NCBI GenBank assembly: GCA_963723535.1
Contig: CAVRRE010000009.1
Span: 213,297-277,296, forward strand
DNA: 64,000 nucleotides
Reading direction: 5' to 3'
Source of the DNA: an uncultured Acidobacteriota bacterium
Lineage (GTDB): Bacteria; Acidobacteriota; Thermoanaerobaculia; UBA5066; Gp7-AA6
Shown here: positions 4,950-14,689 of the stretch, piece after piece
Layout of the letters: the number at the start of each line of letters is the position of its first letter
How positions within the stretch are numbered: the stretch's first letter is position 1
Translations under genes and position numbers: made by a program
Notes under the pieces: model-generated
What the model was told of the DNA's origin: nothing
Databases searched by the model: none
The model's input: the letters and a program-made list of their open reading frames with translations, nothing else

Positions 4950-6098
4950 TCAGCCGGAAGGGCCGGGATCCGGGCGTCCTCGAGGCTGGCGGCGGTGCAG
5001 CGGTCCTTCCCGTGCTCCTTGGCGCGGTATAGGGCCGTGTCGGCGGCGCGGAGGAGCTCGTTCTTCTGCTGCTCGACCGAGGCGCCCGGCGTCGCGTGGG
5101 AGCGGATCGAGGAGAGGCCGAGCGACGCCGTGATGACCCCGTGGAGGTTGAGCGCCGGCTCGTTGAATCCGTAGGGCCGGAAGAGGAACGTCGCGCTGCG
5201 GATGGCGACTCGGATCGCCTCGGCGACCTCGAGGCCTTCCTGGAGGTCGTGGCCCGGCAGGATCAGGACGAACTCGTCTCCGCCGTAGCGCGTGAGCGTC
5301 GCGCGCTCGTCGGTGACGGTGCGCCGCAGGATGTAGCCGACCTCGCGGAGCACCTGGCTTCCCGCGAGGTGGCCGTGGCGATCGTTGACCGACTTGAGGT
5401 TGTCGAGGTCGAGGAAGAGGACCGAGAGGTCGCCGCCGTCGCGCGAGATCCGCGAGAGCTCCTGCGTCAGGCGGAGATGGAGGTAGCGCTCGTTGTAGAG
5501 CCCCGTCAGTCCGTCGCGCTTGGCGACCTCGTACGCGCGGCGCGCATCGAGCAGGTTCTGGATCGAGATCGAGGCGTAGTCCGCGAAGATTTCGAGGAGC
5601 CGCCGGTCCTTCTCGCGGAATCCTCCGGGCCCCGCGCGGTTCACGAGCTCGAGCACGCCGCAGACGGAGGACTCGATCCGGACCGGCACGCAGAGGACGG
5701 ACTTGGTCTGCGAACCCGTCGCTCAGGTCGAGCGTGGGGTAGAAGAACGGATCGTCGACGACGTCGTCGGTCATGTACGCGACGCCGGTGGCGTAGACGT
5801 GGCCGACGATGCCGACGCGCGCGTTCATGCGCTTGCCGAGCCGGGACTCGCCGTGCGCGCCGAAGGTCGCGATGAACACGAGCTCGTTCTCGAGCCGGTC
5901 GTCGGAGTTTTTGGTCATCGGATCGTCGAGAAGGATCGATCCGGCCTCGGACGGCACGAATTCGTTCGCCTTCTGGAGGATCTCGCGCAGGAATCGGTCG
6001 ATCTCGATCTCGCCGGTATAGGCGTAGTACGCCTTGTGCCTCTCGAGGAAGTTTTCGAGTCGGCGATTCTCCAGCGTATTGACTTGCAAAGCGCCCAT
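4950..6098 (-). CDS. GAF-domain diguanylate cyclase (GGDEF)
   Basis: The N-terminal GAF-like region is MGALQVNTLENRRLENFLERHKAYY...GIVGHVYATGVAYMTDDVVDDPFFYP. The frame changes near 5700 into ...GLTGLYNERYLHLRL...VLFLDLDNLKSVNDRHGHLAGSQVL...RYGGDEFVLILPG...ALYRAKEHGKDR. No in-frame stop precedes lat, so the 3' end is approximate. Confidence 0.8.
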   Translation of the reverse strand: MGALQVNTLENRRLENFLERHKAYYAYTGEIEIDRFLREILQKANEFVPSEAGSILLDDPMTKNSDDRLENELVFIATFGAHGESRLGKRMNARVGIVGHVYATGVAYMTDDVVDDPFFYPTLDLSDGFADQVRPLRAGPDRVLRLRRARAREPRGARRIPREGPAAPRNLRGLRLDLDPEPARCAPRVRGRQARRTDGALQRALPPSPPDAGALADLARRRRPLGPLPRPRQPQVGQRSPRPPRGKPGAPRGRLHPAAHRHRRARDAHALRRRRVRPDPAGPRPPGRPRGRRGDPSRHPQRDVPLPALRIQRAGAQPPRGHHGVARPLLDPLPRDAGRLGRAAEERAPPRRRHGPIPRQGAREGPLHRRQPRGRPDPGPSG

Positions 6099-10818: not shown

Positions 10819-11731
10819 TCAGCGGGCGTGCCCGCCGGCGCTCCCGCGCCGGGCGTGGCGGCTCCCAGCCGGATGGCGAGGTAGACGAGGACGCAGCAGA
10901 GCGAAGTCGATGGCGAGGCCGAGCGTCGAAGCGGAACGGCTGGTTCTGCAGGGCCGGCGGCAGGCCCGGATGCAGGACCCAGAAGTAGATCGCGTTTCCG
11001 ACGAGGACCGCGATCGAATACTCGATCCACCGGCGCTTCGTCACGGCGCGAAACCTATCGCGGATCGCCCGGCGATCCCGTTGCCGTGCGATCCGCTCGC
11101 GCGTGATCGCGAGCTGGCGGCGCGAATGGGCCAGGCCTTCCGTCAGACCCTGGCGCTCCCGGATCGCGGCGGCTTCTTCGAGGGCCGCCGCGCTGCCGGC
11201 GAGGTGCTCCGCGGACCGCGCCGGGTCGAGCTCGGCGCGGCGGCGCAGGGCGAGGCCGAGGTTGTGGAGGGTCACGCCCCGGGCGATCTCGCGCTCGGCC
11301 GTGCGCCAGTCGAGCGCCCGTCTCGAAGAGCGCGACGGCCTCGGCGAGCTCGGCCTCGCTTTCGCCGAGGTTGGAGAGCGCGGTGGCGAGGTTGTGCAGG
11401 GCCCGGGCGTGCCAGCCCCCGTCGGGTCCTCCGGCGAAGTGGCCGAGCGCCTCGGCGAAGAGTCGGCGCGCGCGCTCGAGGTCGGCGGCGGGCCCGGGGC
11501 TCCCGTAGAAGACCGCGGCGTTGTGCAGGAAACGGGCGCGGCGCTCCGGCCGAGCGAACGGCGAGCGCCGGCAGCCGCTCCCAGAGATCGTCGGCGAGCG
11601 CCCGCGAGACGTCCGACTCGCCGCTCGGCGCGAAGCTCTTCCTGCGCGCGGAACCAATCGCGGTACGCCCCGGCCGGGTCCGACGCGAGCGCCTCCCGGA
11701 AGTGGCGGCGGAGAGGCTCGAGGTCGGCCAT
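10819..11731 (-). CDS. TPR-like repeat protein with C-terminal transmembrane segment
   Basis: MADLEPLRRHFREALASDPAGAYRDWFRAQEEL, FLHNAAVFYGSPGPAADLERARRLFAEALGHF...WHARALHNLATALSNLGESEAELAEAVALFE, VTLHNLGLALRRRAELDPARSAEHLAGSAAALEEAAAIRE, then KRRWIEYSIAVLVGNAIYFWVL and GLAIDFALL/CCVLVYLAIRLG. The 3' end is unresolved. Confidence 0.5.
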
Positions 11732-11743
11732 CGCGCGGTCAAC

Positions 11744-13814
11744 TCAGGCGCCGTCGAAGAGTCCGCGCTGCCGGGCCGGCCGGCCGGCGGAAGGTGCTCG
11801 TGCGCGGCTCTCTCCTCGTCCGGCCCCTGGTTGATTCCGAGCCGGCGGCACTCGATCTCGAAGAGGCTCTCGATCGCGGCCCAGCGCGGTCCGACTCCCT
11901 CCATGCGCGCGCCGAACCGCGATTCGTTCTTTTTCCGCCGCGTGTCTGCTCCAGGTTCGACCAGACGCGCGCCGCCCGGTCGGGGAAGGCTTCGGCCGAG
12001 TCGCTCCTCGAAGACGGGAAGGACCTCGGCGGGAAGGCGGAGCAGCGTGAGGAAGGCGCTGCGGGCCCCGGCCGCGCGGGCGCGCGAGAGCACCGCCGCG
12101 ATGTCGCTGTCGTTCAGGCCGGGGATCACGGGCGCGACCGAGACTCCCGTGCGGATGCCCGCCTCGGAGAGGCGGGCGATGGTCTCGATCCTCTGGGAGG
12201 GCAGGCTCGCGTTGGGCTCGATCGCCCGCCCGACGGCGTCGTCGGCGAAGGGCACGCTGACGTAGACCACGGCCGCGGATTCGCGGGTCAGACGCGAGAG
12301 GATGTCGACGTCGCGACGAACCAGCGCTCCCTTCGTCACGATGCCGACGGGATTGCGGAACTCGGCGCAAACCTCGAGACACCGCCGCGTGATGCCGTAG
12401 ACCGCCTCGAGGGGTTGATAGCAGTCGGTGACGCCCGAGAAGACGAGCGTCTCGCCCTTCCAGGAGCGCCGCGACAACTCCCGGCGGAGGAGCTCCGGCG
12501 CGTTGACCTTGACGACGATCTTGCGGTCGAAGTCGGTGCCCGCGCCCCAGCCGAGGTACTGATGGGTCGGGCGGGCATAGCAGTTGTGACTGACCACGCC
12601 GTTCGCGATGAAGTCGCCGGTTCCCGTCGTGATGTCGAAGAGGGGAAGCTCGACTCCCAGCGGCGCGACCGACGCGACCCGGAGCCGGGCCTGGCTCTTC
12701 AGGGCCTGACCCGCGATGTCGAGCTTGCGGGTGATCGCCGGACCGACCGTATGAAAGAAGCGCAGGTGCTCGCGGAGTCCGCGCCGCACCCGGACGACGC
12801 GGACAGGTTTCTCCCGCGGACTGTCTCTCGACGACGAAGTCGAAGCCGAAGAGCCGCAGCCCCTCGGCGATCCTCTCGATGATCCTGGAGTCCGTGTTGC
12901 AGATGCGCAAGATGCCGCGGCTGTAGCTTCCCTCGGCGTCGAAGATGCCGGCGAGAAAGCCTCGGTGCCAATCGGTCGTCGGGTGACGGACGGCCACTCG
13001 ATGATCCTGCGTATGGCATCGACGTTTGCACGGGCGCTCGTGCGGATCCCCCGAAGCTCCTTCCGCGAGTCGGCGGCCGCCTGGAAACAGGAACTCTCGG
13101 GCTTCGATCGGCGAACGTCCTGAAGATATCGGCGCGTCCGCCCGAGAGCTTCGAGGTCGACGAGCGCCAGACGGAAATGGTGCTGCTCGTCCACCGCACG
13201 CCTGCGGCCGCCGTACGGAATAGGAGCCGACGAGGGCGTCGCCCCGCACCATGCCGCAGAGATAGCCGGTTCGATAGTCGATCGGTCTCGTCGGCCGGCC
13301 GTGCGAAAGCCCCTACGCCGAGCAGTGAATTGTTGGGCGTCAGGTGGGGCCGCTGCCGACGTTGTCCCGGCGCGACGTACTTCCAGCCACGCTCCGTCAG
13401 AAAGCGATGATCGGCGCTCGCGACGAGCGTCGTTCCATCTTCGAGCTCGATCCGATACGCGGCCTCCAGCCGGCGCCAGTGATGGAGCACCTGTGTCTTG
13501 ACGTAACGGCGGTATCGGCCGACGAGCTTCGTTCCGTAGACCTCGTCTCCGATGCGAACGTCCTTCAGCTCGCGGGTGCGCCCGTCGCCCATGAGGATCG
13601 GTGTGTCTCCTCCCAGGCAGTACGCGCACGCATGAAAACATCCGCGGTACGGGTTCACGCTGAAGCGGAAGCCGACGTCGGGACTCTGGTTCTCCGAGAT
13701 GATCGACTTCGCCTCTTCCTCGTAGACCTCGAGCTCCGCGGCGGGCGGCTCGCCGAGCCACTCGGCGTGTACGGATTGCCAGGGGTTGGGCGGGTTGGAA
13801 ACGCGGCGGGTCAC
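11744..13814 (-). CDS. intein-containing radical SAM protein (Rv2578c/PA0069, SplB-like family)
   Basis: N-extein: MTRRVSNPPNPWQSVHAEWLGEPP...FRFSVNPYRGCFHACAY. C-extein: CYARPTHQYLGWGAGTDFDRKIVVKVNAPELLRRELSRRSWKGETLVFSGVTDCYQPLE...VPFADDAVGRAIEPNASLPSQRIETIARLSEAGIRTGVSVAPVIPGLND...FLTLLRLPAEVLPVFEE...ESRFGARMEGVGPRW...ending ...RQRGLFDGA. Many frame changes. Confidence 0.85.
12583..13619 (-). mobile_element. class-1 intein with LAGLIDADG homing-endonuclease domain, inserted in the CxxxCxxC motif
   Basis: Cys1 codon is at 13617-13619, starting CLGGDTPILMGDGRTRELKDVRIGDEVYG (block A). Block B is TLVASADHRFLT. Two dodecapeptide motifs are present: YLCGMVRGDA and FLAGIFDAEGSY...ICNTD. The C-terminal splice motif is GDFIANGVVSHN (Asn codon 12583-12585), followed by the +1 Cys (12580-12582). 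The 1037-nt length is not a multiple of 3 because of internal frame changes. Confidence 0.85.
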
Positions 13815-13829
13815 CGGGCGACTTTTCCT

Positions 13830-14689
13830 CTAGGCGGACTTGGCGGGTCCGGACTCCTTCGGCGGCCGCTGCGAGACGCGCGAATTGCTTGAGCCCGTCG
13901 CCCGTCAGAAACGGCCGGCCGAACCGGATCAGGTCGGCGCGCAGGCGGCGGAAGGCATCGAGCGGGATCCTTCGAGAGGCCCGGGTAGCGCATCAGGCCG
14001 GCGACGCCGAGCCGTTCCATGTAGTCGGGATGGAGGAGCTGGCGGCCGCCCGCGGCGTAGGCCGCGATCGTCACTCCGCTGCGGACGCGGAGCTCGAGGG
14101 CCCGGCCCCGTCTCGCGAAGCGTGTCGTCGCCGTCGGCGCGGCCCTCGATCTTCTCCTCGCGGATCTCCTGCCGCTTGAAGCCGTGCGACGGCCATGACG
14201 TCCGCGAGGAGGGCCGCGCCCTCGGTCAGCAGCTCGGCGTCCGCGCGCTTGGGATGCGAGCGGCGGAGCGCCTCCATCAGGGAGTCGATGCGGCGGCGCA
14301 GCTCGTCCCGCGTCGCGCGGAAGGCCTCCGCGCGCTCCTCCTCGCTGCCGCGGACGAAGCTCGGGTCCTCGATCGACCAGTTCACGAGGTGGCGGGCGTT
14401 CGGCCACGTCGGGCAGTCGGCGGCGGCCGAGTCGCAGACGGTGACGACGAGGTCGAACGGCTCCTCGAGGAATTCCTCGGCGGACTTGGAGCGCGCATTG
14501 TCCATAGCGGACGCCGAGCTCCTCGATCGCGTGGATCGCGAGCGGATGCACGAACCCCGCCGGACGCGAGCCGGCCGAGACCGGATCCAGCAGGTCGCCG
14601 TAGTCGAGGCGGGCGAGCGCCTCGGCCATCTGGCTGCGCGCGGCGTTGCCGGTGCAGAGAAACAGGATGCGACGGCGATCCGAGGGCAC
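13830..14689 (-). CDS. LMW-PTP-type (thioredoxin-coupled) arsenate reductase-like domain with an uncharacterised ~140-aa C-terminal extension
   Basis: The N-terminal domain has ILFLCTGNAARSQMAEAL (CX5R P-loop), SAGSRPAGFVHPLAIHAIEELG and DLVVTVCDSAAADCP (Cys pair). A stitched extension follows: SHGFKRQEIREEKIEGRADGDDTLRETG / RALELRVRSGVTIAAYAAGGRQLLHPDYMERLGVAGLMRYPG / IPLDAFRRLRADLIRFGRPFLTGDGLKQFARLAAAAEG. About four frame changes. Stop is inferred at TAG 13830-13832. It could be two genes. Confidence 0.6.

Follow-up and report, generated by a model that had tools for sequence, protein, structure and literature searches.

The locus analysed here raises the question of what interrupts the cysteine motif of a radical SAM gene whose reading frame is broken in many places, whether the interrupting element is intact and mobile, and whether its position bears on maturation of the enzyme. 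The window, i.e., the whole stretch of 64,000 nucleotides that was analysed, comes from an uncultured Acidobacteriota bacterium. The locus is very probably best explained by a canonical class-1 intein with a double-motif LAGLIDADG homing endonuclease, which interrupts the [4Fe-4S]-binding CX3CX2C motif of a PA0069-family radical SAM gene after Tyr65 and just before the third Cys.

Host gene, intein and frame breaks

The features are listed below; here and elsewhere in the text, a slash within a motif marks the insertion point or splice junction.

11744..13814, minus strand: complete host gene, encoding a PA0069-family radical SAM protein plus intein (GTG start 13812-13814, stop 11744-11746)
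13620..13814, minus strand: N-extein, 65 aa, ending in ...NPYRGCFHACAY, with Cys59 and Cys63 as the first two CX3CX2C ligands
13620-13640, minus strand: N-extein motif CFHACAY
12583..13619, minus strand: intein, in which a double-motif LAGLIDADG homing endonuclease interrupts the Hint splicing domain; 1037 nt long in the assembly and 1032 nt (344 aa) once seven indels are taken out
13581..13619, minus strand: block A, CLGGDTPILMGDG, containing the nucleophile Cys1 (codon 13617-13619)
13395..13430, minus strand: block B, TLVASADHRFLT, an S-x-x-H variant of TxxH (S133-A-D-H136, precursor numbering)
13235..13267, minus strand: LAGLIDADG motif 1, GYLCGMVRGDA, with catalytic Asp192
12923..12961, minus strand: LAGLIDADG motif 2, GFLAGIFDAEGSY (GFLAGIFDAE292G), with catalytic Glu292
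12583..12642, minus strand: blocks F and G, LFDITTGTGDFIANGVVSHN, with the block F Asp (LFDITT), His408 and terminal Asn409
12583-12603, minus strand: block G, NGVVSHN, with the Asn codon at 12583-12585
11744..12582, minus strand: C-extein, Cys410 first, followed by the remainder of the radical SAM barrel and a C-terminal region specific to PA0069 proteins
12580-12582, minus strand: Cys410 codon, +1 splice nucleophile and third CX3CX2C Cys, beginning CYARPTH (12562-12582)
12816..13281, minus strand: seven intein indels, at about 13281 (+1), 13216 (+1), 13120 (+1), 13112 (+1), 13084 (+1), 12988 (+2) and 12816 (-2)
11771..11998, minus strand: five indels in the C-extein tail, at about 11998 (+1), 11931 (-1), 11808 (+1), 11779 (+2) and 11771 (-1)

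In the assembled sequence, pieces of the intein and exteins lie in three reading frames, the N- and C-exteins being in different frames, and the insert of 1037 nt is not a multiple of 3. The indels listed above were placed by alignment to the intact orthologue in an intein-bearing locus (L001). When all 12 are removed, the host product is 687 aa long, contains no in-frame stop and is 90% identical to the homologue P0001. The frameshifts could in principle be real, with the intein and host gene both dead parts of a decaying pseudogene: the assembled gene switches frame about 10 times along its length, and the public gene call on the window sequence is a 297-aa fragment (P0241). However, FtsK, RNase J, BacA and nine other neighbouring genes are equally rich in indels, with 64 of them, mostly +1 insertions, in 12.3 kb; this is 1 indel per ~193 nt, against 1 per ~172 nt in the gene, in agreement with the statement in the first-pass annotation that the intein carries the same kind of frame breaks as the rest of the window. 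Because the 12 neighbours are disrupted to the same degree and correction leaves no stops, we reject the pseudogene as very improbable; the catalytic residues, too, are all intact. As read from the sequence, the frame breaks are assembly noise and not biology, and they are distributed evenly along the window. We call the gene intact because the 12 indels are attributed to sequencing error, and the assembled form itself cannot be translated through. For annotation purposes, this is a single 687-codon gene shredded by assembly indels, in which a PA0069-family radical SAM enzyme and its intein should be recognised.

Membership of the host in the PA0069 family is indicated by the model NF033668 (cutoff 360 bits), against which the joined exteins score 393.1 bits and the full precursor 374.5 bits, versus 353.8 bits when the tail is left uncorrected; the match on the joined exteins forms one stretch, residues 21-333. 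An alignment of the joined exteins to intein-free homologues, which the first-pass annotation had proposed as a check, gave 335 identical residues of 340 and 0 gaps against P0121 (BLASTP). Excision brings CFHACAY next to CYARP and restores CX3CX2C. None of the three Cys varies among the 119 intein-free and the 121 intein-bearing sequences, and the same holds for the N-extein residues C59, H61, C63 and Y65. A PDB sequence search with the host protein returned nothing meaningful. Plus-strand ORFs over the region (e.g., 11521-12882 and 13344-13892) have no homology support and were taken as spurious, being expected at ~70% GC, and no RNA feature turned up in the window with Rfam or in a tRNA scan.

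All peptides quoted in the first-pass annotation were located on the minus strand, and the intein ends given there, 12583 and 13619, are exact, falling on the terminal Asn codon (12583-12585) and the Cys1 codon (13617-13619). Its description of a class-1 intein that carries a LAGLIDADG endonuclease and splits CX3CX2C ahead of the third Cys also stands. The insertion follows Tyr65 (CFHACAY/C), and all splice residues are present, together with the two acidic residues of the endonuclease. The Hint and LAGLIDADG profiles that it suggested running on the corrected translation all score above their cutoffs: TIGR01445 intein_Nterm (cutoff 24.5) gives 30.9 bits for the fragment holding the intein and 26.4 bits for the protein at full length, TIGR01443 (15.6) gives 16.6 bits, and PF14528 LAGLIDADG_3 (22.5) gives 27.8 bits. 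In addition, the N-terminal part of the intein matches the intein portion of the model NF038136 far beyond chance (E=1.7e-42).

A PDB sequence search with the intein gave only weak matches to DnaB/DnaE inteins and I-DmoI; since PDB sequence matches were weak or absent, a fold search was needed. It was carried out on an AF2 model of P0001, an 86%-identical homologue used in place of the broken sequence of the window (mean pLDDT 86, and 90-98 in the intein). Foldseek matched this homologue model to the TliVMA, PI-PfuI and PI-SceI inteins, i.e., to the Hint fold, at E 3e-15 to 1e-10, and to I-DmoI with a target TM-score of 0.72-0.80 (rmsd ~3 Å over ~185 columns); the double-domain LAGLIDADG fold, alpha-beta-beta-alpha-beta-beta-alpha, is present in the model. 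These proteins share the architecture with the window intein, i.e., a monomeric two-motif LAGLIDADG endonuclease, which in the inteins splits the Hint domain, whereas the identity is only 12-18% and the hosts are V-ATPase and RNR; compared with PI-SceI, PI-PfuI and TliVMA, the window intein is smaller (344 aa) and lacks any obvious additional region for DNA recognition.

Residue conservation was assessed in a set of 121 intein-bearing sequences, and the splice and endonuclease residues are near-invariant in its 120 intact homologues. His408, Asn409 and Cys410 are each present in 121 of 121, Cys1 in 120, and Ser133 and His136 of block B in 117 and 120, respectively; the block F Asp is invariant (alignment A2). 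For the endonuclease, Asp192 is kept in all 121 and Glu292 in 119, with an Asp in one more. On these features 12583-13619 reads as a class-1 LAGLIDADG intein splitting the Cys motif of a PA0069-family radical SAM protein, and is a clean but ordinary example of its kind.

Relatives of the intein and known counterparts

Relatives of the intein are found in at least 581 species genomes of about eight phyla, and they occur in Acidobacteriota, Omnitrophota, Myxococcota, Planctomycetota, Proteobacteria and Gemmatimonadota as well as in viral contigs. The insertion site is the same in 77 of the 80 genome loci examined, including those of Actinomycetota; three loci (L007, L008 and L079) fall outside the junction pattern, that of L007 ending 2 nt past the intein match. 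Further hosts in which a related intein interrupts this motif are DUF5131, DUF1848, SPASM-type and phage radical SAM proteins. The position CX3CX2/C in several radical SAM families and viral contigs is a recurrent intein target, which can be called a cofactor-motif hot spot. P-loop hot spots are known for ATPase inteins, and the radical SAM Cys motif is comparable with them.

The statement in the first-pass annotation that intein-bearing members of the family had been annotated elsewhere was correct, in view of the NCBIfam model NF038136 ("intein-containing Rv2578c family radical SAM protein") and of Novikova et al. (2016; PMC4760082). Comparison of insertion sites, also suggested there, places the window intein at the same CX3CX2/C position as the NF038136 family. 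The inteins are homologous, the one of Micromonospora sp. NBC_00898 (L050) being 55% identical to that of the window; on the model, where the intein occupies 76-334 and the +1 Cys is 335, the N-part of the window intein maps to 76-188, its C-part to 267-334 and Cys+1 to 335, and the members share with the window the junction CxHxCxY/C…HN/C[YF]AR. The host, in contrast, belongs to the paralogous or sister PA0069 family and is Acidobacteriota-like, not Actinomycetota. The window protein scores 485.7 bits against NF038136 (cutoff 700), for which L050 as positive control scores 910.1 bits, and its exteins score 228.9 bits against the Rv2578c equivalog NF038135 (cutoff 430). We rejected membership in NF038136/Rv2578c because both scores are below the curated cutoffs, though the intein and its site are homologous. 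This points to a curation gap, in that the curated intein-containing model omits PA0069-family hosts.

Novikova et al. (2016, Mol Biol Evol; PMC4760082) listed 48 "SplB" (COG1533) inteins among replication and repair proteins, in Actinobacteria only, and the words "radical" and "Fe-S" are absent from their text. The window host is in the same COG-level class ("DNA repair photolyase / spore photoproduct lyase"), and relatives of its intein extend beyond Actinobacteria; the "SplB intein" is far more widely spread than the literature consulted, which places it in Actinobacteria alone, would suggest. A literature search on inteins and radical SAM enzymes yielded no paper describing such an insertion, the paper on a Campylobacter phage that it returned concerning other genes, and a search on inteins in CxxxCxxC/CX3CX2C motifs or DUF5131 found nothing relevant.

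Empty alleles and probable mobility of the intein

Intein-free alleles exist very close to the window sequence. The extein of the window is 98-99% identical in amino acids to that of an empty allele (335/340 by BLASTP, 0.977 in another alignment), and two loci (L002 and L003) carry an empty site in the same gene order as the window. The blastn match to the empty allele stops at 13617 and 12582, i.e., at the intein ends. The DNA at these sites is as follows.

Empty site: …TGTTTTCATGCTTGCGGTTAT/TGCTATGCCCGCCCGACG…
Empty site of L002: …GGATGTTTTCATGCTTGCGGTTAT/TGCTATGCCCGCCCGACGCAT…
Occupied-type flank: …GCGTGCGCGTAC/…

Four of the 37 extein DNA mismatches fall within 10 nt of the site, in the 5' flank, where the window equals the intein-bearing L001. 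Occupied and empty alleles are mixed on a fine scale: the nearest extein neighbour is intein-free for 25 of the 121 intein-bearing sequences and intein-bearing for 21 of the 119 intein-free ones. Furthermore, in some pairs the exteins are 0.96-0.99 identical and the inteins only 0.69-0.74. We consider that the endonuclease would cut alleles lacking the intein within the conserved DNA that encodes the motif, and that the intein would then be copied in, as the comparative pattern suggests; such homing would account both for the fine-scale mixture and for the spread over phyla and radical SAM families.

Mean pairwise identity is 0.61 for both intein and extein, and the two identities are correlated (rho 0.49). 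Equal conservation of intein and host would also fit an element that has been resident for a long time and has passed in part by vertical descent.

An alternative to ongoing homing is a resident intein that is no longer mobile, whose endonuclease is inactive or has no target left, and which is kept since precise deletion is rare and imprecise loss destroys the cluster motif. The correlated identities with equal means agree with this, as does the finding that the nearest neighbour is also intein-bearing for 96 of 121 sequences. We nevertheless hold it to be improbable, in view of the two catalytic acidic residues kept in 119-121 of 121 sequences, the empty allele at 98-99% extein identity to the window, the interleaving of occupied and empty alleles, and the near-identical exteins whose inteins are only 69-74% identical. 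A further point against it is P0374, a mini-intein without an endonuclease found elsewhere, which implies that loss of the domain is tolerated once selection lapses.

Predicted splicing at the cluster motif and its possible control

According to the class-1 mechanism, the precursor would be a single 687-aa chain, in which Cys1 would undergo an N-S acyl shift and Cys410 (+1) would attack the resulting thioester; cyclisation of Asn409 followed by ligation of the exteins would then recreate CFHACAYCYARP. The former +1 nucleophile would become the third cluster ligand of the mature enzyme, which would therefore need splicing. The first-pass annotation had proposed this double role for one cysteine, and Cys410 does align with Cys66 of the intein-free P0121. 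It had also proposed that the cluster cannot be ligated until splicing occurs; the precursor, however, keeps a linear CX3CX2C (C59-x3-C63-x2-C66, C66 being Cys1), and since Cys1 rebuilds the motif, this proposal does not follow from sequence alone.

Redox- or metal-conditional splicing of the PA0069 intein is plausible by analogy with the intein of Pyrococcus abyssi MoaA, Cys63 lying at -3 from Cys1 as in the MoaA redox trap. MoaA is a radical SAM enzyme whose Cys-3 is probably the second Cys of CX3CX2C, which would make the two sites equivalent. The trap of Callahan et al. (2011) is reported, in the reviews PMC3922620 and PMC10663303, to be a native Cys-3/Cys1 disulfide that blocks splicing reversibly and is released by reduction. 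As described there, MoaA resembles the PA0069 intein in having an N-extein Cys at -3, the catalytic Cys1 and an oxygen-sensitive host, and differs in being archaeal and of another host family; the redox data belong to MoaA. Another comparison is the mycobacterial SufB intein, whose splicing is reported as stress-sensitive (e.g., PMC8891592) and whose host acts in Fe-S assembly. Both it and the window intein sit in iron-sulfur metabolism, whereas SufB is a scaffold in which no cluster-ligand motif is split, and the two inteins are unrelated.

As a supplement to the best explanation, splicing might be gated by redox or by metal/Fe-S, so that maturation of the oxygen-labile radical SAM enzyme would proceed only under reducing, iron-replete conditions; this might operate through a Cys63(-3)-Cys1 or Cys1-Cys+1 disulfide, or through a metal or cluster on the CX3CX2C-like motif rebuilt by Cys1. 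Besides the MoaA precedent, the exact -3 position of Cys63 (C63-A64-Y65/C66), the invariance of Cys1 and Cys+1, the conservation of intein and endonuclease to the same degree as the host, and the use of the same motif position by related inteins in many radical SAM families all agree with such gating. Cys at 1 and +1 is, on the other hand, the commonest intein arrangement anyway, and Cys at -3 and -7 is dictated by the motif of the host, so that this geometry may merely follow from the location of the homing site. Moreover, the -2 and +2 residues are alike in occupied and empty alleles and thus give no sign of extein adaptation. Taken by analogy, we regard the gating as possible but unlikely.

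A broader form of the proposal, to which we give slightly less credence, is that the lineage has become a specialist of the cluster loop common to all radical SAM enzymes. It would invariably insert as CX3CX2/C, Cys1 thereby rebuilding the motif and the second ligand coming to lie at -3, and cluster or metal binding to this pseudo-motif, or a Cys-3/Cys1 disulfide there, would block the N-S acyl shift and act as an oxygen/iron checkpoint. If true, such a checkpoint would act in radical SAM enzymes of hundreds of bacterial species, and also in those encoded by phages, and it would explain the colonisation of at least six host families at one position. Regulation here is only a candidate, and the intein family offers a convenient natural system for testing inteins in Fe-S motifs as redox or metal switches.

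Anatomy and frame correction of the interrupted gene

Three-frame translation of 11700-13830, with the peptides mapped back to the DNA, has placed the intein exactly where the first-pass annotation proposed it, at 12583-13619 on the minus strand, and the structural interpretation given there is correct. Below, ^ marks an insertion point or splice junction.

Landmarks of the intein and its junctions (frame translation, peptide mapping)
13620-13640, minus strand: end of the N-extein, …NPYRGCFHACAY, of which CFHACAY occupies these positions
13581-13619, minus strand: intein block A, CLGGDTPILMGDG, with the Cys1 codon at 13617-13619
13395-13430, minus strand: intein block B, TLVASADHRFLT
13235-13267, minus strand: LAGLIDADG motif 1, GYLCGMVRGDA
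12923-12961, minus strand: LAGLIDADG motif 2, GFLAGIFDAEGSY
12583-12642, minus strand: intein blocks F and G, LFDITTGTGDFIANGVVSHN
12562-12582, minus strand: start of the C-extein, CYARPTH…

The intein and extein pieces lie in three different frames, the insert measures 1037 nt and is not divisible by three, and no read-through is possible in the host gene as assembled; an ORF-based reading of the window requires frame correction first. The closest intact intein-bearing homologue, P0001 (687 aa), shares 86% identity with the roughly stitched window frames, and its contig L001 is syntenic with the window (FtsK, LMW phosphatase, radical SAM gene, BacA, RNase J, RsmA and GGDEF gene). When the two genes were aligned as DNA, the window copy showed 12 small indels: seven lie in the intein (about 13281, 13216, 13120, 13112, 13084, 12988 and 12816) and five in the C-extein, all in its final ~280 nt. 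Window indels are mostly +1 insertions with no obvious tie to homopolymers. When the window was projected on the intact reading frame, a 687-aa product with no internal stops and 90% identity to P0001 was obtained, whose intein comprises 344 aa (residues 66-409).

Decay of the intein was considered as the cause of these breaks and rejected, because the corrected frame is free of stops and the indel density is alike in 12 neighbouring genes: one per 172 nt in the radical SAM gene vs one per 193 nt in the neighbours (64 non-multiple-of-three indels in 12.3 kb of genes syntenic with L001, including FtsK, RNase J and BacA, measured on window 1850-23100). The breaks are thus of one kind across the window, as had been supposed, and are best read as assembly noise. 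They belong to the deposited assembly itself, since a public gene call of 297 aa (P0241), 100% identical and starting from intein Met10, lies on the 560-kb NCBI/ENA contig. This call (window 12699-13592, minus strand) is in the wrong frame beyond the first indel, and the deposited annotation has therefore split the gene. Frame breaks affect FtsK, RNase J, BacA, DegT and the GGDEF gene alike in the window. Neither Rfam families at the gathering threshold nor tRNA or tmRNA genes were found in window 1-64000.

The frame-corrected joined exteins match the NCBIfam model NF033668, 'PA0069 family radical SAM protein', at 393.1 bits (cutoff 360) in one unbroken stretch (residues 21-333 of the joined exteins); the Rv2578c equivalog was rejected as the host family (228.9 bits, cutoff 430). 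The Hint and LAGLIDADG domains that the first-pass annotation expected were recovered by profiles, the intein lying above three curated thresholds: TIGR01445 for the N-terminal region (30.9 bits for the intein fragment and 26.4 for the full-length protein, cutoff 24.5), TIGR01443 for the C-terminal region (16.6 bits, cutoff 15.6) and PF14528 LAGLIDADG_3 (27.8 bits, cutoff 22.5).

In the P0001 precursor as modelled by AlphaFold2 from a 131-sequence alignment (mean pLDDT 86; intein 90-98), the Hint fold is present, the model being that of a close homologue and not of the window's broken sequence. Homing-endonuclease inteins rank first in a Foldseek comparison of this model with the PDB (TliVMA 7qsu at 3e-15, then PI-PfuI and PI-SceI), and its middle domain resembles I-DmoI, a monomeric LAGLIDADG enzyme (target TM-score 0.72-0.80). 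Internally, confidence is low only at residues 60-62 and ~411-430 (window equivalents ~13629-13637 and ~12520-12579), each of which is one half of the split cluster loop, while the intein and the remaining barrel are confident.

The splice-junction residues are present as well. Across the aligned window protein and 120 intact homologues that carry the intein (55-86% identical), C59, H61, C63 and Y65 show no variation and His408, Asn409 and Cys410 are each kept in 121/121; Cys1 is kept in 120/121, block B Ser and His in 117/121 and 120/121, and the endonuclease acidic residues D192 and E292 in 121/121 and 119/121.

Splicing and the cluster cysteines

By the established class-1 mechanism, Cys1 would undergo an N-S acyl shift, Cys410 at +1 would carry out transesterification, Asn409 would cyclise, and an S-N shift would join the exteins and restore CFHACAYCYARP, so that the +1 nucleophile would also be the third [4Fe-4S] ligand. 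One cysteine had been proposed to serve both purposes; as to position this holds, Cys410 being both the +1 residue and the third cysteine of the motif, and we infer the dual role from it. The accompanying claim that the precursor cannot ligate its cluster before splicing needs qualification: the unspliced precursor reads CFHACAYC (window 13617-13640, minus strand), and because the intein itself starts with Cys, a linear C59-x3-C63-x2-C66 is kept.

Cys63, the second ligand, stands at -3 from Cys1. Since MoaA is itself a radical SAM enzyme, its intein in P. abyssi probably occupies the equivalent site. The P. abyssi intein shares the Cys-3/Cys1 arrangement with the window intein, and there a disulfide between the two cysteines has been reported to block splicing reversibly (PMC3922620; PMC10663303). 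Given the same spacing as in the MoaA redox trap, it is reasonable to propose splicing that is conditional on redox state or metal, and the proposal has a precedent; the cysteine geometry is forced by the host motif anyway. The only hint found as to host function comes from the related Rv2578c of M. tuberculosis, a locus bound by LexA and dependent on RecA (PMC3381160).

Empty alleles and mobility

The polymorphism of empty and occupied sites is observed as directly as the anatomy and the conservation. Matches to the joined-extein query are almost only intein-free proteins of ~343 aa, and the closest of these, P0121, is identical to the joined exteins at 335/340 positions without a gap across CFHAC(G/A)YCYARP, which bears out the expected contiguity of the exteins with intein-free homologues. 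Gene order in its contigs, L002 and L003, is that of the window, and blastn alignments are collinear and break exactly at 13617 and 12582, the empty site reading …TGTTTTCATGCTTGCGGTTAT^TGCTATGCC….

Identity between the empty site and the joined extein DNA is 96.4% (37 mismatches), and four of these mismatches, one of them non-synonymous (A64/G64), fall in the 10 nt directly 5' of the insertion point, where the window agrees with the intein-bearing L001 (window 13620-13629, minus strand, GCGTGCGCGTAC vs L002:10186-10195, GCTTGCGGTTAT). Such a cluster is the pattern expected of co-conversion during homing and is only suggestive; it may represent either a co-conversion tract or a difference in homing-site immunity.

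An intein-free protein is the nearest neighbour of 25/121 intein-bearing exteins, and an intein-bearing one that of 21/119 intein-free exteins; occupied and empty alleles are interleaved at fine scale. Mean identity is 0.61 for both intein and extein with a moderate correlation (rho 0.49), and in some pairs the inteins are 0.69-0.74 identical although the exteins are 0.96-0.99 identical. Taken as a whole, these comparisons are consistent with a mobile element whose homing endonuclease is functional or was so until recently.

Two other differences in the neighbourhood were recorded. L001 carries a 668-aa YfhO-like gene (L001:7954-9960) between the LMW phosphatase and radical SAM genes, which is missing from the window (~13811-13830) and from L002/L003, where the phosphatase gene overlaps at its end with the GTG start of the radical SAM gene. 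In the GAF-GGDEF protein, the N-terminal ~273 aa (window ~5279-6098, minus strand) are 99% identical to the L001 copy, the remainder of the gene 75-90% and neighbouring genes 66-91%; this gene is a mosaic, formed by recombination or by chimeric assembly.

Distribution and host families

Intein-containing members of this family had been described as annotated elsewhere, and two sources agree. NF038136, the NCBIfam model for intein-containing Rv2578c proteins, has the same site (window intein at model positions 76-334, +1 Cys at 335), but the window protein scores 485.7 bits, under the cutoff of 700, because its host belongs to the PA0069 family; a protein from a cultured Micromonospora reaches 910 bits on this model. 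The 48 'SplB' (COG1533) inteins listed by Novikova et al. 2016 (PMC4760082) all come from Actinobacteria, and the survey is silent on any radical SAM or Fe-S context.

Full-length relatives occur in at least 581 genomes (intein-only scan, one genome per species), among the matches listed in Acidobacteriota, Omnitrophota, Myxococcota, Planctomycetota, Actinomycetota, Gamma- and Betaproteobacteria and Gemmatimonadota, and the junctions CxHxCxY^C…HN^C[YF]AR were found in 77/80 retrieved loci. A representative library queried with intein residues 1-113, which are unbroken, yielded 875 clusters (50% identity) at E ≤ 1e-3. The window element is a PA0069-host, Acidobacteriota-like example of a curated and very widespread intein allele. 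Intein-bearing PA0069 proteins carry generic source names ('radical SAM protein', 'DNA repair photolyase', 'LAGLIDADG family homing endonuclease'), the name 'PA0069 family radical SAM protein' goes to intein-free relatives, and the scope of NF038136 is limited to Rv2578c-type hosts; this amounts to a minor gap in curation and no discovery.

Relatives were also found in other hosts, and host choice did not bias these matches, because the queries were intein-only. P0275, a ParB_N + DUF5131 protein, has the junctions GCKHECPY^C…AHN^CYARD, and P0374, of the same host type, carries a mini-intein that has lost the endonuclease; DUF5131 is a radical SAM subgroup listed beside spore photoproduct lyase (PMC9477430). 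Five viral loci encode full-length relatives, 23-41% identical and 5/5 inserted at CX3CX2^C; four of the hosts are Pfam Radical_SAM proteins, one of them SPASM-type, and the fifth is a DUF1848 protein.

Relatives on viral contigs
L085:3001-4053
L086:3001-3993
L087:3001-4017
L088:3001-3984
L089:2503-3567

Other radical SAM families harbour the same intein lineage, inserted always at CX3CX2^C, and this point looks like a superfamily-wide insertion hot spot. Among the papers searched, none was found that describes such a hot spot or links inteins to the CX3CX2C motif. The most interesting outcome is that one lineage has repeatedly targeted the radical SAM cluster loop in several host families, genes on viral contigs included.
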